From Escherichia coli (GTDB lineage: Bacteria > Pseudomonadota > Gammaproteobacteria > Enterobacterales > Enterobacteriaceae), in the NCBI RefSeq assembly GCF_003018255.1, contig NZ_CP027440.1: 64,000 nt of DNA. The stretch is one strand, 5' to 3'. The notes under the pieces are model-generated. The model saw only the letters and a program-made list of their open reading frames with translations, was not told the DNA's origin and made no database searches. Below are positions 19,235 through 39,311 of the stretch, piece by piece. Within the stretch, counting starts at the first letter, position 1. The number at the start of each line of letters is the position of its first letter. Made by a program: the position numbers and the translations under genes.

Positions 19235-20358
19235 TATTGCATTTCCTCTTTCATTTTCAGGAACTCGGCTTCGGTTTTACCCAGCAGTTTGGCGGCCGCG
19301 ATATCTTCAGCCGACAGCACAGCGGTGGCAGTCTTTTTATCCGGCACGGTCACGGTGTCGGTCTGAAGGCCGGTCAGGGCCGCAACCGGCTGGCGGGCGT
19401 CAAGCTGTGCAGAAAGTGCCGCAACGCCAATCTGCCCGCCCAGTTGTTCCAGATAGCCGCGTTCGCTTTTGAAGATGCGCCCTTCGGATTCAGCCTTGTC
19501 CAGCACCTGCTCCAGCGTGGTGCTGCCGTGCTGCGCCGACAGCGCAACGTATTCGGTACGCAGGGCGTTATACGTTTCAACGGGCACGTATTTCGTCAGA
19601 TCAATACTGCCGCCAGCCGGTGTGCCTTTTGCGGTTTCCAGCTCTGCCGACAGACTGGCGACCTGTGTTTTCAGGTTGTCGTGTGCATCCGCACGGGTTT
19701 TGATCCCGGTGAGGGCAGACAGCGCCGCCGTGCCCAGCTCCGGCGTAAATTCGTCACCGTCAGCCACGGTCAGACCGAGCGCCGTCAGCAACTGGCGTAA
19801 TTGCTCATTCATGGAGGTATCCTTTAAAGGAGGGTTTAAGGCGTTATAAAGGTCATCCGCCGACAGTGCGGCGACAGGATTCATGCCGGTCAGACCGGGG
19901 TCACCGGTAATAGCCAGCATCCGAAGTTCGACAGGTTCGCCGGTGCTCTCGTCATAGCCAATCACCGGTGAAAACCAGGGGAATTCGTTATTACGCAGAT
20001 GTTCAAGGGCCGGAGGGTTCCACTTCGGGCGCACCTCGAAACCTCGCTCTTCACTGAAGCGAAAATTCTCCGGTGAGGCCATCACAAAACCGGCAGCCGG
20101 TGCCGGATGTCCCTCAATCAGGGTCTGGTGGTTGTAGTCAATTTTCACCGGCTGATTGAGCGCCACAACACGGGAGACCATGCGCTCAACGGCTGCATGG
20201 TTGATCAGCCAGCCCTCGGCCGGTTTTTCCGGGCGACCGTCACGGGCCTTTACCCGACCGGCTGGCATGATCTGACACCAGTCACCGTCCCCGTCTGCGG
20301 ACAGGCTGATGGCATTCAGAATGGCATAAGCAAGTTTGGGCGTGTTTTTCGTCTTCAT
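19234..20358 (-). CDS. Head maturation protease/scaffold I (Mu gpI-like)
   Basis: 374 aa with an N-terminal protease-like domain and an Ala/Leu-rich coiled C-terminal scaffold part. Its stop overlaps the T start. Confidence 0.8.
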   Translation of the reverse strand: MKTKNTPKLAYAILNAISLSADGDGDWCQIMPAGRVKARDGRPEKPAEGWLINHAAVERMVSRVVALNQPVKIDYNHQTLIEGHPAPAAGFVMASPENFRFSEERGFEVRPKWNPPALEHLRNNEFPWFSPVIGYDESTGEPVELRMLAITGDPGLTGMNPVAALSADDLYNALNPPLKDTSMNEQLRQLLTALGLTVADGDEFTPELGTAALSALTGIKTRADAHDNLKTQVASLSAELETAKGTPAGGSIDLTKYVPVETYNALRTEYVALSAQHGSTTLEQVLDKAESEGRIFKSERGYLEQLGGQIGVAALSAQLDARQPVAALTGLQTDTVTVPDKKTATAVLSAEDIAAAKLLGKTEAEFLKMKEEMQ

Positions 20359-20534
20359 TCCGGCAGCATAGGCCGGGAATTTTCAGGGCGGGTTTTGCGG
20401 GATTTCAGGAAGTGCTTCCAGGGGAAAAATACAAAGGCGCTTCACGCAGATTTTAAAGCCCGTTAAATACAGGTTAGAAAATCACGACACGCGCCTGAAG
20501 GGGGTAAGGTAATGCATTTGCATACCTTAAACAA
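20359..20534 (-). promoter_or_regulatory. G-I intergenic region (expected late promoter, Mu P_I position) with near-perfect palindrome
   Basis: This is a 176-bp non-coding gap in an otherwise tightly packed late region. It holds TAAGGTAATGCA-TT-TGCATACCTTA at 20505-20529, immediately after the G stop. Confidence 0.45.
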
Positions 20535-21008
20535 TTAAGGCGTTTCTGTGGCCTTTTTAAAGCGTTTTCTGATTTCGTCCATGATCTCCTGCTCTGCCAC
20601 CTGATCAAAGCCCATATACGGACGTGCACCAATGGCCGCCGGTCCCGGCGGCATACCTGGCAGGCCACCCCACTGATGAATGGCCGCATAAGGCTCATTT
20701 GATCCAATCAGCGCCCAGGTGTCGCCATAATCCGTGGTCAGGCGTCGGGCCAGATCGCCGTTCAGCGTCAGGATTTTGCCGGGCATGTATCCCTTACGGG
20801 TACGCCACTTGCGGTAAGGATCTGACCAGTCATGCCAGCGTTCGCCGTCCGGCTCTTTTTCCTGTTCAAACGCCATTTCTGACGATGACAGAAGGCTGGA
20901 CGCCACACTGCGGGCCAGGTCTTTTCCGCCACCCACAAACTGAAGCCGGGCAAAGACCCGCTGGAGACGCGTAACGTCAACAACGACGGCGGCATCAATG
21001 GATGACAT
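20535..21008 (-). CDS. Virion morphogenesis protein G (Mu gpG-like)
   Basis: 157 aa. GGAGG RBS. In Mu synteny between F and I. Confidence 0.75.
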   Translation of the reverse strand: MSSIDAAVVVDVTRLQRVFARLQFVGGGKDLARSVASSLLSSSEMAFEQEKEPDGERWHDWSDPYRKWRTRKGYMPGKILTLNGDLARRLTTDYGDTWALIGSNEPYAAIHQWGGLPGMPPGPAAIGARPYMGFDQVAEQEIMDEIRKRFKKATETP

Positions 21009-21046
21009 ATTGCCTCCGTATAAAATATGAATATAAAATAAGCAGG

Positions 21047-21129
21047 CGGTCAGTGTACGCTTAACTGGTAAAGTCGGTGCCTGCCTCCGGGTGGATCATG
21101 TATGCGGGTTCGACCCCCGCCACTGACCG
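21047..21129 (+). other. tRNA-like structured element (acceptor-like stem plus canonical T-arm), not a canonical tRNA
   Basis: Closing stem CGGTCAGTG (21047-21055) pairs with CACTGACCG (21121-21129). T-arm is GCGGG-TTCGACC-CCCGC (21104-21120). TA follows the 7-bp stem, and a D-like hairpin has loop AACTGGTA. No convincing anticodon stem and no encoded CCA. Confidence 0.4.
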
Positions 21130-22461
21130 TTAATCAATATCTCCTTCCAGTACCTCAAGCATTCCGCCCCGGATATCCGATTTCAGCTTATCCATATTGA
21201 TAACCCGGTAAGCATTAACAATCACATCCAGTTTATCCGGCTGACGCTTCAGGCTGTACGGTGCATTAACGGCAATCTGCACACTGCCATCCTGATTTTC
21301 CACGATATACATCAGATTGTTGTGCCGTTTGTCCCACAGTACCGCTTTTGGCCTTGCCAGCATTGCCGGTAAGCGCCCGAAATCCTCCGGTGTCAGGGCG
21401 ATACCGTCATTCTGATGTTTCATGCTGTCCGCATGGAGCACATTTTTACCGCTCATCGCCAGCAGGCGGGCCGGTGGCGTTCCCGTCCGGCTTTCCACCG
21501 CCTGCGCAATGCTTTCGGTCATAAAGCCCAGCGTGCGGATATCGTTACCGCCTCGCCGGGTTTTCATGATGTTTTTTGCCCAGATGCGGAACGCCAGCTG
21601 CCGCTCCGGGCTGTTGTTCATCTCCTGAACCACCATTTCCCGTAACGCCGGGCTTTTCACCTCGATCAACTTGCGGAGCAGCGCCTGGTCTGTGCCGAAC
21701 GCCGCCGAACCGGGGTTATATGACCAGCCCACATCCGGTGTCATGGTTCTGGTGCCATCTGAATATGTGGTCACCGGCATTTCTCTGACTTCTCCGGTCT
21801 GCTTATCCACGCCAGCCTCAACATTGCGGGTGGAAAGATGATCCTGACCGGATGAAACGGATAACCCCATTGCATCCAGACGGGTCTGAGACAATGGCCG
21901 GACACGGCAGCGGCAGTTCCAGCCATTGGGTGGGTAGTGTGTATTCCAGAACGGATCGTCATAGCGGAATACCAGACCGTTAAGGGCGGAATGCGCCGGG
22001 CGGGTGCGGCTGTCCATCACCGCCACATACTGCCAGAACGGATGCGTGTCCGTGTTGTTCATCATCTGCGTGTAACGCCCGGCATTGTAAGCCACGCGGG
22101 TGTTCACGTTGTAAATCAGCGCCAGACGGCGGGGACAGCCCAGCTGCACTTCTTCTGCGTTACCGGCGCTGTCCACCACAATCTGCTTTCCCCACCATCC
22201 CAGCTTTTGCAGGCGGGGGGTCAGTGTGCGGATAAATGCTTTCTGTGAAATCCCCTCATCAATGGCCCGTTGCACTTCCGCCTGTAGTGTGGTCAGTACG
22301 TCCAGGCGTGCCACTTTTGCCGCCGTGAACGAACGGGCATGAACATCCGCGTCTGTTTCGAACCAGTTCCAGCTGATATGCGCCCCTTTGGCGCGGAAGT
22401 ATGCCACCGCCTCTTTTGAGGGAAGCGTGGCGGCATAACCTAAATCAATCCCCTGTGCCAT
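21130..22461 (-). CDS. Head morphogenesis protein F (Mu gp30-like, SPP1 gp7 family)
   Basis: 443 aa with the motif RTRPAHSALNGLVFRYDDPFWNTHYPPNGWNCRCRV typical of this family. Confidence 0.85.
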   Translation of the reverse strand: MAQGIDLGYAATLPSKEAVAYFRAKGAHISWNWFETDADVHARSFTAAKVARLDVLTTLQAEVQRAIDEGISQKAFIRTLTPRLQKLGWWGKQIVVDSAGNAEEVQLGCPRRLALIYNVNTRVAYNAGRYTQMMNNTDTHPFWQYVAVMDSRTRPAHSALNGLVFRYDDPFWNTHYPPNGWNCRCRVRPLSQTRLDAMGLSVSSGQDHLSTRNVEAGVDKQTGEVREMPVTTYSDGTRTMTPDVGWSYNPGSAAFGTDQALLRKLIEVKSPALREMVVQEMNNSPERQLAFRIWAKNIMKTRRGGNDIRTLGFMTESIAQAVESRTGTPPARLLAMSGKNVLHADSMKHQNDGIALTPEDFGRLPAMLARPKAVLWDKRHNNLMYIVENQDGSVQIAVNAPYSLKRQPDKLDVIVNAYRVINMDKLKSDIRGGMLEVLEGDID

Positions 22462-27798: not shown

Positions 27799-28261
27799 CC
27801 GCCGAACGGCGGGCCTCAAGGCCGGGGAGTTTCACCCCCTTTGAATAAATCCAGCGGATATACTGCTTACAGGACGCGGGCATCTGCCCGGCATTGATCA
27901 GGCGCAGAAGCGTGGAGTTGCGAAAGTTCGTTTCACCGGCCCAGAAGATCCACGAAGCCAGCGCCACCGTCTGACCACGGGTAAGCGGCACCTGAACACG
28001 CCGATCAATGGCCGCAAAGGCCCATTTCATGTCCTTTTCCAGTAGTTCCAGGCATTCTTCATCTGTCAGGGTCATACCCGGTTTCACATCCGGGCCGGTA
28101 TGGCCGTAACAGATGGTGGGTGTACCGGAGGGATCGATATACGTGGAGTTTTCTTTCCCTTCCCAGTAACCGGTGTAATGCGTGGCAATCGTGAACGTCC
28201 CGGCACCGGCCAGAACAAGGGCAATCAGCTTTTTACGCAGTGGTGCGGGGAGTTTTGGCAT
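27761..28261 (-). CDS. SAR endolysin (T4-lysozyme-like, GH24)
   Basis: It has an N-terminal weakly hydrophobic signal-anchor LIALVLAGAGTFTIA. The catalytic spacing E-x8-D-x5-T is seen in YWEGKENSTYIDPSGTPT. Confidence 0.8.
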   Translation of the reverse strand: MPKLPAPLRKKLIALVLAGAGTFTIATHYTGYWEGKENSTYIDPSGTPTICYGHTGPDVKPGMTLTDEECLELLEKDMKWAFAAIDRRVQVPLTRGQTVALASWIFWAGETNFRNSTLLRLINAGQMPASCKQYIRWIYSKGVKLPGLEARRSADEWLCRYDLPKV

Positions 28262-28332
28262 TGTTACGCTGTCTCATGATGTTCTCTGAGTCAGCGTAAC
28301 GGTGAAGGAGAGGCGGCAGGCTTTGCGGAATA

Positions 28333-28758
28333 TCAGAAAAGTGGCGGTTGCGTTCTTGCCAGATGCAGACGGCGCTGTTCGCGTATGACGGTATAAATCT
28401 GGGTTTCTGACATCCGGTAATGGCGGCGAAGGGATTCAATTTTCTCGCCCCGGTCCCAGCGCGAAAATATCTCATTGTTTCGCAGCTCGGCAAAGAGAGA
28501 TTCCCCGACCGGCAGGTAATAACCCCGTCCGCCCATATAGGCTGCCTGAGCCGCAGCCACCTTGCGTGCCAGTTTACCGGCCAGTACCGGCTCAATCCCC
28601 TGACGCTGAAGTTCTGCGCCGGTGACTTCAACCAGTTCTGACAGGGTCCGCGGCCAGTTCTTTTTGAGAACATCATCAGGGATGTCATCAAGGCGGTCGA
28701 TAAGGGCGTGCAGTTGCTCACTGTCACCACCAAACATGCTCATCTGAGTTTCTGCCAT
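28333..28758 (-). CDS. Mor/C-family transcriptional activator
   Basis: 141 aa. The C-terminal segment YYLPVGESLFAELRNNEIFSRW...MSETQIYTVIREQR is typical of the Mor family. It lies downstream of a gemA-like gene as in Mu. Confidence 0.75.
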   Translation of the reverse strand: MAETQMSMFGGDSEQLHALIDRLDDIPDDVLKKNWPRTLSELVEVTGAELQRQGIEPVLAGKLARKVAAAQAAYMGGRGYYLPVGESLFAELRNNEIFSRWDRGEKIESLRRHYRMSETQIYTVIREQRRLHLARTQPPLF

Positions 28759-28827
28759 ATCAGCCTCCGGTTCTCGCGTTCCCGGTAAGTTTAAAATAAA
28801 AATCCCGCGTTGTGGCGGGATTTGGAG

Positions 28828-29337
28828 TTAACGGGGAAGTGATTTTTCATACTGCCTGCAAACGGCGTCATACCCCATCAGCGTGCGTTCGGGCATTCCC
28901 ATCGCGGCCAGCATTTTGCGGCGGTGCCATCGCTTGAGACGCTCCAGCACATCTGAGGCCAGGGCGGGGTGTTGCTCCAGCCACTGCCAGTTTGCCACAC
29001 CTTCGCCGCCGTTTTGCGCGGCCGTCTGCGATTTCACCCAGCGGTTAAGGGCGGTTTCCGCACCATCGGTGATAAAGCCCTGCCGGTGCATCACCTTCCA
29101 GATGGCGCGAATTTTGGCGGTCACCGTACCCGGTTTTAAGGCCCGGTTAACCGGGTTCTGACGCACTTTAAAACCGCGTTTTTTGAAAACATCCAGCACG
29201 CGGGATAACTCATCCGGTGACATATCCCGGCAGCTGGTTTTGCCGGTGGCTGCCAGCAGCGCGGATGTATAAGTCTCATCATCCAGGGCAAGCTCGCGCT
29301 TTGCCACATGAATGGCGGATATCAGTTTTCCTCTCAT
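28828..29337 (-). CDS. GemA-like regulatory protein (Mu gp16, DUF1018)
   Basis: 169 aa, MRGKLISAIHVAKRELALDDETY... is typical of the gp16 family. Confidence 0.7.
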   Translation of the reverse strand: MRGKLISAIHVAKRELALDDETYTSALLAATGKTSCRDMSPDELSRVLDVFKKRGFKVRQNPVNRALKPGTVTAKIRAIWKVMHRQGFITDGAETALNRWVKSQTAAQNGGEGVANWQWLEQHPALASDVLERLKRWHRRKMLAAMGMPERTLMGYDAVCRQYEKSLPR

Positions 29338-29630
29338 ACCGTATTTACCTTTTTACGGACATGGAAAGCCTTTTCTGCCTCATCCCACCGGGCATGGTGT
29401 GTTGGTGGAATAATCATTATGTGCCAGCCATCTCTGGTTGTTATCCGGCAGAAAAATTCACCGCTATATAACACAATGGCCTGCTGAATGAGCGCATCAG
29501 CCGCCCGTTCAACCGGATGTCTTTTATCAAAAAAGCAGATGATTTTTCGACATAACCACCGGGTAATAACAAATGCGCCGAAAAAGGATGTGATATATAA
29601 GCACCAGAACAACAGAGAACTATTGTCCAT
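29334..29630 (-). CDS. Hypothetical membrane-anchored protein, 98 aa
   Basis: N-terminal TM LLFWCLYITSFFGAFVITRWL. It overlaps gemA by 4 nt and lies in the AT-rich block. Confidence 0.5.
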   Translation of the reverse strand: MDNSSLLFWCLYITSFFGAFVITRWLCRKIICFFDKRHPVERAADALIQQAIVLYSGEFFCRITTRDGWHIMIIPPTHHARWDEAEKAFHVRKKVNTV

Positions 29631-29817
29631 TATCTTTCTCCTTATTCAGTCTTCTGCGACATTCGGCACAGTCATCAGGGCTTTCAAATGTATCCGGCTC
29701 GCGATTATGAGCCAGATATAACCACCGCCTACATATACTGATATTATCGCCAGTTTTAAAAAAATGATGCTTCTTAGCCATCAGAGGGCGCGCCCATCCA
29801 GCGGGTAGACTATTCAT
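29620..29817 (-). CDS. Hypothetical Cys-containing small protein, 65 aa
   Basis: Cys residues at ISICRRW and DDCAECRR suggest possible metal binding. It overlaps both neighbours. Confidence 0.45.
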   Translation of the reverse strand: MNSLPAGWARPLMAKKHHFFKTGDNISICRRWLYLAHNREPDTFESPDDCAECRRRLNKEKDNGQ

Positions 29818-30184
29818 TTGCTTTATCCTCCATACTGGACAAAATCATCTGTATTAATGTCGGGCGTGGAGATATACGCATTTCATTAAGCGTCTGAAGG
29901 GCAGCAACAGCTGCCTGTTTATCGGTGCCTTTGGCAATTTCCGCAAGAGAATGCACAATCCATAACGGACTTAACGCCACGACTGAATCCAGAATCATGT
30001 CATCCATAATAATTTCTGACACATCCCGCTTATCACATTCCTTATCCATAAAAGAAACGATTTTTTCCACATCTTCCGGTTTCATGCCTCCGGCGATAAG
30101 AAATTTGCGATACTCATAAGACGATCTTAATTCAATACTCATATTCATCTCCTGTAACTCTGACAAGGACGTGATTTTTCTCAT
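29810..30184 (-). CDS. Hypothetical acidic helical protein, 124 aa
   Basis: Net acidic with no recognisable motif. ATGA overlap with the upstream ORF. Confidence 0.5.
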   Translation of the reverse strand: MRKITSLSELQEMNMSIELRSSYEYRKFLIAGGMKPEDVEKIVSFMDKECDKRDVSEIIMDDMILDSVVALSPLWIVHSLAEIAKGTDKQAAVAALQTLNEMRISPRPTLIQMILSSMEDKANE

Positions 30185-30366
30185 TTATGTTTTCCAGTAA
30201 TACGGATATATATGTCGATAAGAAGATTCATAATAAACAGGAAGAGCGACATCCTGATAAAGAACCAAATATCTGGCATCATGGACAGGTTTCCTGTAAT
30301 CGCAAATATAACCCCCCCCCCCAACACCGGAACGAAAATTGCGAAAAATACAAGTCTCTTTATCAT
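30181..30366 (-). CDS. Hypothetical two-TM membrane protein, 61 aa, containing a G11 homopolymer
   Basis: MIKRLVFFAIFVPVLGGGVIFAITGNLSMMPDIWFFIRMSLFLFIMNLLIDIYIRITGKHK. ATGA overlaps at both ends. Confidence 0.5.
   Translation of the reverse strand: MIKRLVFFAIFVPVLGGGVIFAITGNLSMMPDIWFFIRMSLFLFIMNLLIDIYIRITGKHK
30312..30322 (-). repeat. Homopolymeric tract C11 (G11 on the coding strand)
   Basis: Counted directly: 30312-30322 are all C. The tract encodes L-GGG-V of the 61-aa ORF. Confidence 0.9.
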
Positions 30367-30914
30367 GGCGTTAACTCCCGTAATACAGCGTCCTCGGCAG
30401 TCCGGCGATGGTGATAAATAAAATTCACCGTACTCTCGGATAATTCAAATTTCTCGCCTATTTCCCGGAAGGTAAGACGTCGTGGTGATTCAGCATCCCG
30501 TAATTCACGAATAAGATGAACATCATCGTCAGGTATACGGGTGAAGGGCAGCAATTCTCCGTATTTTTTCATGCTTACGCCAATATATCGCGCCCGATTG
30601 TGGACAGAATCCCGGTCTCGCCCCAGATATTCTCCTATTTGCTTACCGGTCATCGTTCTGGCATTTTTTCGGATAAATTTATCTTCATCATGTTTAAATC
30701 TTGGACGTTTGCATTTGAGCAACTCCGGGTAAGTACCGCGTAATAAAACAATCCGGTTATGTACACCCCAGAAACTTCTTTTTACCCTGACAGCAATATC
30801 CTTAACCGGGGTGGATGGATAAAGCGCAATCAGCAGCGCATCTTCTTCAGGTGTCCACGCACGGACATGAGCAGGTGCCTGACCTTTTCGCCCCATGGGT
30901 TGTAAAATCATCAT
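30363..30914 (-). CDS. Putative DNA-binding protein with three HTH-like modules (Myb/SANT-like WTPEEDALL plus two further HTH segments)
   Basis: 183 aa. Candidate modules are WTPEEDALLIALY...DIAVRV, MTGKQIGEYLGRDRDSVHNRARYIG and LTFREIGEKFELSESTVNFIYHHR. Confidence 0.5.
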   Translation of the reverse strand: MMILQPMGRKGQAPAHVRAWTPEEDALLIALYPSTPVKDIAVRVKRSFWGVHNRIVLLRGTYPELLKCKRPRFKHDEDKFIRKNARTMTGKQIGEYLGRDRDSVHNRARYIGVSMKKYGELLPFTRIPDDDVHLIRELRDAESPRRLTFREIGEKFELSESTVNFIYHHRRTAEDAVLRELTP

Positions 30915-30917
30915 ACA

Positions 30918-31433
30918 TCACCCCCTGACTCGCTTTTCAGCAGCATAAAACTCATCAGACAGAATTTCGGTCATTTTCTGATTTGCGGGTTTTACGCCGC
31001 ACTCAAGGTAAATCACATCGTCAACGCAGAACCACTTCACAGGGCCAAACATGATTGCCGAGAAATCAATACCCAGCCAGAACAACAGTGCATCGGTTCT
31101 GGCATACGTGACGGGCGAATATTCACGCCACAGACTGTTAAGTTCGTCAGAGGCAACGCGCAGGGCTTTGGGAATACGTGATGTGCGCGGTGTGCAGCTC
31201 CAGCCATTCGACGCAGTCGGTTTTCGCCATAAGTCGCGATGAAAAGGATATTTGTCATCCATAAAGCGCAGCCCTTTAAAACAAAAGCCACTGATACCGG
31301 ATACAAATACCGACCGGCACGCAACATTCAGCACGGCCTCAAGGCGTTTTGCCTCATCCTTAACTTTCTGGCAGTCCTGCTGATATTTTTGCCACGCGGC
31401 CAGCGCGGAAGGGTTTGATGTTTTAAAGAACAT
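30918..31433 (-). CDS. Hypothetical protein, 171 aa (distant paralog of 31970..32512)
   Basis: It shares ordered landmarks with the 180-aa ORF: KYQQ, F-x-F-x-G, WRK, D-x-L-x-x-WL. Confidence 0.5.
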   Translation of the reverse strand: MFFKTSNPSALAAWQKYQQDCQKVKDEAKRLEAVLNVACRSVFVSGISGFCFKGLRFMDDKYPFHRDLWRKPTASNGWSCTPRTSRIPKALRVASDELNSLWREYSPVTYARTDALLFWLGIDFSAIMFGPVKWFCVDDVIYLECGVKPANQKMTEILSDEFYAAEKRVRG

Positions 31434-31966
31434 TACGCCACCTCCGCAGATATCCCGGCAGGCGCGGCCGTCCGGTCAACAATCAGGTAACGCAGAACGC
31501 GCGAGGTGATATTCCAGCCGCTTAAACCGCAGATAATGACACCCAGGCGTATGTCGATATACGCCATCACAAACTGGGGCACGCCTTCTTTCATGGCCTG
31601 CTCATCAACTTCAGCCACCACATAAACGGTTTCACAGGTCAGAACGCCCTGAGCAAATTCCCACGCCATTGACGGAATATCATGCCCCTCAATCCACGGC
31701 AGGGATTTTCTGAAGCTGCACCACTGAACATCATCAGCCGCACCTTCCTGGCTGCATTTGCGACGAACCGGCTGCACCGGGCGGGGACGCGGAATATCAT
31801 AAAAACCGTTACATTCCGTCAGCACCCCGGCATCGACCGCATCACGCAGAAAATAAACCATCGAGGATGGCGGCATATTCATTTTTTCAGCCAGAATGCC
31901 GCAGGTCAGACGCCCGTAAATACTCAGCCAGTTTTTAACCCCTTCAAGCACTTTTGCATCAATCAT
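31433..31966 (-). CDS. Hypothetical protein, 177 aa, N-terminal winged-helix-like segment
   Basis: The ORF is tightly packed between the two paralogs, with a 1-nt overlap downstream. Confidence 0.5.
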   Translation of the reverse strand: MIDAKVLEGVKNWLSIYGRLTCGILAEKMNMPPSSMVYFLRDAVDAGVLTECNGFYDIPRPRPVQPVRRKCSQEGAADDVQWCSFRKSLPWIEGHDIPSMAWEFAQGVLTCETVYVVAEVDEQAMKEGVPQFVMAYIDIRLGVIICGLSGWNITSRVLRYLIVDRTAAPAGISAEVA

Positions 31967-31969
31967 GAA

Positions 31970-32512
31970 TTATTCCTCCGTCAGCGCCACATATTCAGAA
32001 TGTTTAATCTCCTGGCATTCTTCAGGAATACCCCCTTTTATTTCCCTGCCATAAGCGCCTACTTTAAACACCACGCACAGGGCATCACGGGAGAGCGACG
32101 GGGTCCACCAGGAGTCCATGTTAAACATGGAGGGGATTCTCATTACCCCCAGCTTTTCACAGAGCCAGACAAGGAAATCAGGACGCTTTCTTAACTCGCG
32201 TTCAGCGGCTTCAATCATTGCGGCAATCGCCGGTCCTTCAGGGCATGACTCATCAGGTCTGGCAATAAAGCACGGTCCGTCCCCGATAAAAGCCACATCA
32301 TCGCGCTTACGCCAGCCCGCAGGCAGAGCACCAGAAAAATAAAACTCACTGATTACGTCCATGGCAAACGGCTTTAAGCGCAATCCGGCAGCGCCTGTAT
32401 TTTTCAGTAATGCCCGAAGAATACTGTTGCGTAGCGGTAAAACAGTCTGTTGATATTTGGTGAAATATTTATTTGTCTGCACACGGTCTAATTTGAAATA
32501 AAAATATGCCAT
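31970..32512 (-). CDS. Hypothetical protein, 180 aa
   Basis: First gene after the gam-proximal 97-bp gap. See the paralog note at 30918..31433. Confidence 0.5.
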   Translation of the reverse strand: MAYFYFKLDRVQTNKYFTKYQQTVLPLRNSILRALLKNTGAAGLRLKPFAMDVISEFYFSGALPAGWRKRDDVAFIGDGPCFIARPDESCPEGPAIAAMIEAAERELRKRPDFLVWLCEKLGVMRIPSMFNMDSWWTPSLSRDALCVVFKVGAYGREIKGGIPEECQEIKHSEYVALTEE

Positions 32513-38827: not shown

Positions 38828-38999
38828 GTATCAAATGTGTCGCCGTTTTTTGATCTTTTGACTATTTGTTGAGCAGTCGGTATCAAAAAGAGTTTTCCGT
38901 CCGAAGTATACATCACCTGTTTTATTTCAGCATCTTACAGGTGATTTCACCTCCTTTCACTAAAACCCTTGTCGGTATCAAATGATTCACCTGGTTACA
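38828..38999. repeat. Prophage left-end terminal region with inverted TTTGATAC motifs (candidate transposase binding sites)
   Basis: GTATCAAA occurs at 38828-38835, 38880-38887 and 38975-38982. The last is 17 nt from the terminal ...GGTTACA. Confidence 0.7.
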
Positions 39000-39311
39000 A
39001 ACGATGGATTGATTGATAACCTGCCACAAGGATGTTGCGTGGAAGTAGCCTGTCTGGTTGATGCTAATGGCATTCAGCCGACCAAAGTCGGTACGTTACC
39101 TTCGCATCTGGCCGCCCTGATGCAAACCAACATCAACGTACAGACGCTGCTGACCGAAGCCATTCTTACGGAAAATCGCGACCGTGTTTACCACGCTGCG
39201 ATGATGGACCCGCATACTGCCGCCGTGCTGGGCATTGATGAAATATATGCTCTTGTTGACGACCTGATTGCCGCCCACGGCGACTGGCTGCCAGGCTGGT
39301 TGCACCGTTAA
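39000..39311 (+). pseudogene. melA: melA downstream part (C-terminal ~103 codons)
   Basis: ...NDGLIDNLPQGCCVEVACLVDANGIQPTKVGTLPSHLAALMQTNINVQTLLTEAILTENRDRVYHAAMMDPHTAAVLGIDEIYALVDDLIAAHGDWLPGWLHR*. The ATG at 38982 in the track lies inside phage DNA. Confidence 0.85.

Follow-up and report, generated by a model that had tools for sequence, protein, structure and literature searches.

The semi-essential early region of phage Mu carries kil, gam, sot, arm, cim, and lig/gemA, and the Mu early operon ends between gemA and mor. P2-like phages and P4-like satellites contain fixed cargo hotspots in which anti-phage systems alternate. Many host-takeover and counter-defence genes come from variable stretches of phage early operons. 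Here we describe a block of four small genes at positions 29334-30366 of a 64-kb window (i.e., the whole stretch of DNA that was analysed) of Escherichia coli contig NZ_CP027440.1, which carries an Sp18-type Mu-like prophage of Shiga-toxigenic E. coli (STEC). The block consists of four minus-strand open reading frames (ORFs), referred to here as orfA to orfD in the direction of transcription, between a gene for a multi-helix-turn-helix (HTH) regulator and gemA, where a preliminary description of this DNA had placed them. To our knowledge, none of the named Mu phenotypes has been assigned to one of the four gene families found here. Our comparison of related prophages indicates that the block is a mosaic accessory region, in which orfB is an anchor between two cargo slots and the four genes are exchanged separately, and not one module.

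Of 5426 complete E. coli genomes, 231 contained the flanks of the block and 220 some part of the block itself. Arrangements were counted in an evenly spaced sample of 60 of the 221 matching E. coli records. Read in the direction of transcription from the HTH gene to gemA, with orfA to orfD shortened to A to D and alternative cassette genes labelled e, f, and g, the order A-B-C-D is found in the window, in Sakai, and in sister locus L008. Other loci carry e-f-B-C-D (L005 and L006), A-g-e-f-B-C-D (L007), e-f-B' followed by a DUF2513 gene on the other strand (L009), e followed by an SfMu gp15-like gene and a reverse gene (L010), or e-D (L011). Among the sampled records, A-B-C-D1 was the most frequent arrangement (24/60), followed by B-C-D1 without A (18), B-C-D2 (9), and A-B-C-D2 (4); two records contained D only, and A-g-e-f-B-C-D1, a fragment of B, and another arrangement were each seen once. 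SfMu-type prophages in IMG/VR carry gp13 and B, then either reversed gp15 and gp16 or a reversed DUF2513-like gene, and then gemA. The four genes therefore assort independently: orfD is present without orfB or orfC in L011, orfB without orfC or orfD in L009 and in SfMu, orfC alone in at least 40 unrelated viral loci, and orfA is often absent. They were not exchanged together across related elements, as a single co-inherited module would be.

The positions at which homology between prophages breaks define the units of exchange. Breakpoints fall at gene boundaries (30357, 30174, 30155, 29633, and 29313) and inside orfB (29898) and orfD (29522). Homology to all sister prophages restarts at 30357, where the HTH gene stops and the next gene starts; homology with the e-f-B-C-D and L009 variants stops at 30155/30154, and homology with the variants carrying DUF2513 or gp15-like genes restarts at 29313. 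Compared to Sakai Sp18, orfD, gemA, and mor are nearly identical (synonymous divergence, dS, <=0.016) while orfC, orfB, orfA, and the HTH gene differ at a dS of 0.16-0.20, so that a recombination joint lies between orfC and orfD. Slot 1, from the HTH gene to orfB, holds orfA or other genes (e+f, g), with e+f replacing orfA in approximately 45% of sampled records. Slot 2, from orfB to gemA, holds orfC and orfD, a reverse-strand DUF2513 gene, or a gp15/gp16-like pair. The preliminary description had raised the possibility of a variable hotspot, and our data bear this out, with AT-rich accessory genes that vary at the distal end of the Mu-type early operon; the four genes are not universally conserved core genes of ordinary GC content, the outcome that the preliminary description had named as speaking against its reading.

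The DUF2513 gene (L009:1371-1781, plus strand; L091-L099 and L109-L118) is approximately 46% identical between Sp18-type and SfMu-type lineages, and this reverse-strand cargo recurs at the same orfB-gemA slot in both. It had no PADLOC match, and we found nothing on it in the literature. L011 contains, in addition, a two-gene insert between gemA and mor (L011:829-1486), just past the early terminator. This insert comprises a 78-amino-acid (aa) gene oriented like the operon and a 140-aa gene in the reverse orientation, and its location suggests that a third site takes up cargo.

The anchor, orfB (29810..30142, minus strand), encodes an acidic protein (isoelectric point, pI, 4.8) that is probably all-helical and belongs to PHROG 1988 (E 5e-44). 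The longest ORF starts at 30184 and gives the 124-aa acidic helical protein of the preliminary description; we found that acidity and probable helicity hold while the length most likely does not, as the start is most likely Met15 (ATG at 30142), giving 110 aa. An AGGAG motif lies 6 nt ahead of this ATG, PGAP (the annotation pipeline of the RefSeq record) and the Sakai annotation both use it, and alignments to PHROG 1988 and to the SfMu homologue begin only at Met15. Furthermore, since homology to sister prophages ends at 30155, the 14 extra codons cannot be conserved. With the Met15 start, the orfA/orfB junction is a 38-nt spacer (30143..30180, minus strand) that carries the Shine-Dalgarno sequence AGGAG of orfB and the slot 1 breakpoint at 30155, and there is no overlap.

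By sequence, orfB and SfMu ORF14 are genuine homologues (36% identity over 101 residues, BLASTP E 1e-16). A tblastn search with orfB returned SfMu and four Yersinia phage records and no match in Mu. According to the authors who described SfMu, neither Mu nor D108 has a homologue of ORF14 (PMC4406740), and the label "Mu gp14" for orfB was dropped on that account. In all 42 IMG/VR loci analysed, the orfB-family gene follows gp12-like or HTH genes, with gemA downstream wherever the contig reaches, and neighbouring genes differ between Sp18-type and SfMu-type prophages. These alignments and gene orders indicate that orfB is a conserved anchor common to both lineages. It is not a recent arrival, being ancestral to two Mu-like lineages, and the recent acquisition that the preliminary description had put forward does not hold for it. 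An AlphaFold2 (AF2) model of orfB from a 12-sequence alignment contained helices only, at a mean confidence (pLDDT) of 52; this was too poor for use as a fold-search query, and only the description "helical" was kept. In a PDB profile search, the C-terminal half resembled a HEAT-like hairpin of designed repeat proteins, a match that we did not take as an identity.

All four ORFs are genes and not chance frames, because all four are under purifying selection over 4-15% nucleotide divergence. Ratios of nonsynonymous to synonymous divergence (dN/dS) are 0.21-0.24 for orfA, 0.14-0.16 for orfB, 0.06-0.13 for orfC, and 0.16 for orfD. PGAP annotates all four, Shine-Dalgarno sequences were found for them, and three of the four proteins fall into PHROG families (1988, 2358, and 17269), none of which has an assigned function. 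The statement that no family could be assigned is therefore correct for functional families and incorrect for families as such. Overlap of stop and start was seen at four of the five junctions, namely HTH/orfA (ATGA, 4 nt), orfB/orfC (8 nt), orfC/orfD (11 nt), and orfD/gemA (ATGA, 4 nt). The remaining junction, orfA/orfB, would show overlap only with the upstream ATG, an unlikely start, so that the overlap claimed for every junction needs this one correction.

The block has a GC content of 0.419 compared to 0.514 for the window and 0.55-0.60 for late genes, which places it within the lowest 5% of 1033-bp windows. The values for orfA, orfB, orfC, and orfD are 0.376, 0.405, 0.444, and 0.438, respectively, and early genes adjoining the block are at 46-53%. 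An AT-rich islet had been described here; the AT-richness is real, and three comparable stretches (<=45% GC) occur elsewhere in the Mu-like prophage, at the com/mom end, the tail-fibre inversion region, and the repressor region. Except for gene e (50%), the alternative cassettes have a similarly low GC content (35-42%), which argues that low GC is a trait of this class of cargo and not a sign of recent arrival in one piece. Promoter-like sites within the block were at chance level in a crude sigma-70 consensus scan, and no Rfam family was found in 28000-32000.

Within slot 2, orfC (29620..29817, minus strand; PHROG 2358, E 3e-33) encodes a basic 65-aa protein (pI 9.0) with the cysteine pattern C29-x20-C50-x2-C53, as first described. 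A tblastn search with orfC returned 287 phage records, 268 of them from Pseudomonas phages and the others including Klebsiella, Pantoea, Escherichia, and Shigella phages; of the 268 Pseudomonas records, one locus, in Pbunavirus 14-1, was inspected. A profile search yielded 982 representative clusters (E<=1e-3), mostly stand-alone proteins of 60-75 aa, while some members form the C-terminal domain of longer proteins. W8, H18, C29, C50, and C53 are invariant across an alignment of 108 diverse members, which share the family pattern, and none of the 108 matches Pfam. Based on these invariant residues, H18, C29, C50, and C53 probably form a His-Cys3 zinc site. The AF2 model (pLDDT 89.4, pTM 0.76) contains short strands and a C-terminal helix, and orfC is accordingly modelled as a small beta domain with a basic C-terminal helix.

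PDB sequence and fold searches returned no close solved relative of orfC, lambda exo-xis proteins included, and Foldseek against a viral library with the orfC model found only its own uncharacterised relatives. PWWP/Tudor-type domains, SH3-like five-stranded barrels with a helix, were considered as possible relatives of orfC; Foldseek gave no match, orfC has an invariant His/Cys/Cys/Cys set, and PWWP domains are not known to be zinc domains. A profile match to Kunitz/BPTI (E 0.002) was rejected, as neither structural search backs it and orfC has only three cysteines. The sole recognisable domain among fusion partners of the family is DUF551, in one protein (P0081). DUF551 is also fused to an Ead/Ea22-like protein adjoining an orfC homologue in a lambdoid prophage (the downstream gene of L037), and slot 1 cassette e (L005:2491-2802) ends in a DUF551-like 'VTHWCHISALPE' by eye, with no match to the Pfam model.

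The genomic neighbourhoods of orfC homologues are diverse. In a Salmonella Mu-like prophage, the homologue is immediately upstream of gemA; in lambdoid prophages, homologues lie beside Ead/Ea22-like genes; and in a Klebsiella phage, the homologue adjoins a DNA methyltransferase gene. Since upstream and downstream neighbours belong to many unrelated clusters, a fixed partner was rejected, and orfC would act without one. Phages of several genera, virulent as well as temperate, have retained the gene, a spread from which we reason that it probably targets a nucleic acid or protein that is conserved among bacteria.

The two remaining genes encode membrane proteins that are private to this prophage lineage, and the preliminary description of a two-transmembrane 61-aa protein and a membrane-anchored 98-aa protein agrees with the hydrophobic segments that we found (two in the former, one near the N-terminus of the latter). 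The product of orfA (30181..30366, minus strand; 61 aa, pI 10.4) has two predicted transmembrane segments by hydropathy, at residues 1-28 and 32-58, with positively charged ends that suggest a hairpin of N-in/C-in topology. GGGAG lies 8 nt before its ATG. The product of orfD (29334..29630, minus strand; 98 aa) has a predicted N-terminal membrane anchor at approximately residues 4-24, also by hydropathy, and a C-terminal domain of approximately 60 aa, which is probably cytoplasmic given the basic cluster past the anchor and the positive-inside rule. Neither protein has a homologue in SfMu or in any phage record except the inserted Mu-like element, and orfA had no match in a scan of species-representative genomes. 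SfMu gp13 and gp15, considered as homologues of orfA and orfD, were rejected and are positional analogues only. Among 5.8 billion proteins, orfD was found in only seven clusters, and every cluster with a named source was from E. coli. Such lineage-private distribution suggests that the targets or roles of orfA and orfD are probably narrower.

Two alleles of orfD exist. They are approximately 50% identical and have the first 36 residues, including the membrane anchor, in common, with a sharp switch at 29522 (window 29334-29522 vs L008:1300-1490), while the genes flanking orfD are 93-97% identical between alleles. Since dS between the alleles is saturated and dN/dS is 0.16, our data indicate that they represent an old divergence brought in by recombination and not recent positive selection.

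We asked whether function could be assigned by homology. None of the four proteins matched a Pfam family at E<=0.1. No Pfam or NCBIfam match was found to known anti-defence or exclusion families (such as Ocr, ArdA, Imm, and SieB), newer families lying outside the libraries searched. In PADLOC-DB 2.0, the four proteins had no match at E<=1, nor did nine proteins from alternative cassettes at E<=0.1. No function for the four emerged from PDB sequence and fold searches, and in the literature we found no mention of these genes and nothing bearing on them in work on Mu early accessory genes.

We propose that the four are independent accessory genes in two cargo slots that act early on the host, a reading to which we give a probability of roughly 0.6. 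The block would form the promoter-distal cargo section of the early operon, with exchangeable single-gene cassettes around orfB. Without a promoter of their own, the four genes would be expressed, along with Gam and GemA, only after release from repression, during the first minutes of lytic development. Each protein might then act singly, against a host target of its own, as an accessory in host takeover or counter-defence: orfC as a zinc-stabilised mini-domain with a basic helix that hits a conserved bacterial macromolecule, and orfA and orfD at the inner membrane. Location on the repressed early strand and the lack of a promoter signal point to expression in lytic growth only, a timing more in keeping with host takeover or counter-defence than with a role in guarding the lysogen, and we infer that one of these two roles is the most likely for each gene.

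Several points weigh against this proposal. No function was assigned by homology to any of the four, and the idea that each gene acts alone derives from patterns of co-occurrence. In approximately 93% of sampled E. coli Sp18-type records, orfB, orfC, and orfD are found together, which could be due to a functional connection among the three and not to the clonal origin of STEC prophages. The promoter scan used a crude sigma-70 consensus, and expression in the lysogen is possible. The orfC zinc site is derived from invariant residues and the topologies of orfA and orfD from hydropathy and the positive-inside rule. A bolder version, which we regard as doubtful, is that the orfB-gemA slot is a lineage-wide exchange site of Mu-like phages for conflict genes, where early-strand counter-defence (orfC and orfD) alternates with reverse-strand, lysogen-expressed defence (DUF2513); here, orfC would be the founder of a large phage family of zinc mini-domains that neutralise a conserved immunity or nucleoid component in enterics and Pseudomonas.

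Other explanations of the block have to be weighed against independent accessory genes. The preliminary description had read the four genes as a single anti-defence or exclusion module that is translationally coupled and was acquired recently, and their tight same-strand packing, AT-rich composition, variable presence among Mu-like prophages, and the co-occurrence of orfB, orfC, and orfD in most sampled Sp18-type records are what such a module would show. We consider it very unlikely, as each gene occurs without the others (orfD in L011, orfB in L009 and SfMu, orfC in its 287 phage records, and records lacking orfA, approximately 45%). The joint between orfC and orfD and the breakpoints at gene boundaries, the probable lack of overlap between orfA and orfB, and the ancestral status of orfB also argue against acquisition as one functional unit. 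The possibility that some of the ORFs are not genes and arose by chance in an AT-rich spacer is next to negligible; small size, the lack of functional family matches, and the ORFan status of orfA and orfD would fit, while dN/dS of 0.06-0.24 for all four, together with their Shine-Dalgarno sequences, PHROG families, PGAP calls, and the confident AF2 model of orfC, would not.

Two further explanations concern parts of the block. orfB and/or orfC might work with the HTH protein, GemA, and Mor in the phage's own programme, for example at the early-to-middle switch, in transposition, or on DNA topology. Both genes lie among three regulator genes, the position of orfB is kept in two Mu-like lineages, orfC is directly upstream of gemA in the Salmonella prophage, and a basic C-terminal helix with a probable zinc site is common in DNA-binding regulators. 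We regard a programme role as unlikely nonetheless: orfB is reported absent from Mu and D108 (PMC4406740) and is missing in the Sp18-type loci L010 and L011, and the phages that carry orfC, among them the virulent Pbunavirus group, differ widely in life cycle and regulation. By analogy with T4 Imm, P22 SieA, and HK97 gp15, orfA and/or orfD might be inner-membrane superinfection-exclusion proteins that guard the lysogen. The analogy is one of architecture only (a two-helix hairpin in orfA, a single-pass anchor with a small soluble domain in orfD), and it gains from the small size, inner-membrane location, and lineage-private distribution of these proteins, from the two divergent orfD alleles with a conserved anchor, and from the fact that the slot also takes reverse-strand DUF2513, which is expected to be expressed in the prophage. 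Unlike a gene placed for lysogen expression, orfA and orfD are on the early strand below approximately 9 kb of repressed operon, with promoter-like signal not above chance. No Pfam or PHROG exclusion family was matched, and the age of the orfD alleles speaks against recent positive selection, so that exclusion appears quite unlikely.

If the four are independent accessory genes, the map of exchange units tells an experimenter what to clone (i.e., four single genes and not one block), and the slots beside orfB can be mined for alternative cargo across Mu-like prophages. The most reusable product is the orfC family, with its 982 clusters and no Pfam entry, since one orfC function would annotate homologues in 268 Pseudomonas phage records and many enteric prophages. 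Pbunavirus-type Pseudomonas phages are used in phage therapy.

The Mu-like prophage spans approximately 160-38999, with its genes on the minus strand, and Sakai prophage Sp18 is approximately 96% identical to the window. Sp18 was predicted to be intact and was not inducible by mitomycin (PMC2669165). The insertion site is the portal gene of a Qin-like lambdoid cryptic prophage, and the pieces of the split gene flank the Mu-like prophage at 1-158 and 38991-39218. The rest of this cryptic prophage, with cspB/F/I, relBE, hokD, dicB, and insertion sequence elements, occupies 39-64 kb. Motifs of the TTTGATACC type are repeated at both ends of the Mu-like prophage. AACG is common to both host flanks at the apparent junctions, where a clean 5-bp target duplication was not resolved. 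At the right prophage end, a gene for a Com-family regulator and an overlapping 245-aa gene (288-1179, <=45% GC) occupy the com/mom position of Mu. RefSeq places a plus-strand "tRNA-OTHER" at 21049-21128 (L001:3716-3795), between two late morphogenesis genes, while ARAGORN found no tRNA in 20000-22000.

The early operon reads ner, A and B (approximately 38 kb), gam, a Gp11_C-domain gene, a 171-aa gene, the multi-HTH gene, the four ORFs, and gemA. The upstream bound of slot 1 is the multi-HTH gene (30363..30914, minus strand), whose 183-aa DNA-binding product matches PHROG 323 ("transcriptional regulator, D5-like", E 6e-59) and has weak HTH matches in Pfam. The downstream bound of slot 2 is gemA (28828..29337, minus strand; gp16 family, Pfam GemA, E 3e-30). 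A consensus scan found a terminator-like hairpin at 28800..28823 (minus strand), with a 9-bp stem, five GC pairs, and a T-run, 5 nt past the gemA stop and ahead of mor, and this hairpin is probably the end of the early transcript.

Compared to described systems, the block resembles the early regions of Mu and SfMu most closely. It has the same distal place in the early operon, between gp11/gp12-like genes and gemA/mor, the flanks are homologous (Gp11_C-domain protein, GemA, Mor, and Gam), and the small genes vary between related phages. In SfMu ORF13-ORF16, the counterpart of orfB is ORF14, while orfC has no counterpart at the SfMu locus and orfA and orfD have no SfMu homologue. The lambdoid "moron" arrays (the exo-xis region with Ea22) belong to another phage type and operon; they are similar in that orfC homologues directly follow Ead/Ea22-like genes with 4-nt overlaps, in their small AT-rich mosaic genes, and in DUF551, which is fused to one member of the orfC family and to an Ead/Ea22-like neighbour of an orfC homologue. 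The block shares with the hotspots of P2-like phages and P4-like satellites that conserved genes border two slots, in which sister elements carry unrelated alternative cargo, and the DUF2513 alternative reads against the operon, as a gene expressed in the lysogen would be expected to. Unlike in those hotspots, cargo here is mostly on the early strand, very small (61-116 aa), and matched by no PADLOC model. A mosaic accessory early region is a known phenomenon, and the current view of Mu-like phages is not overturned by our data, which add a new and well-mapped example.

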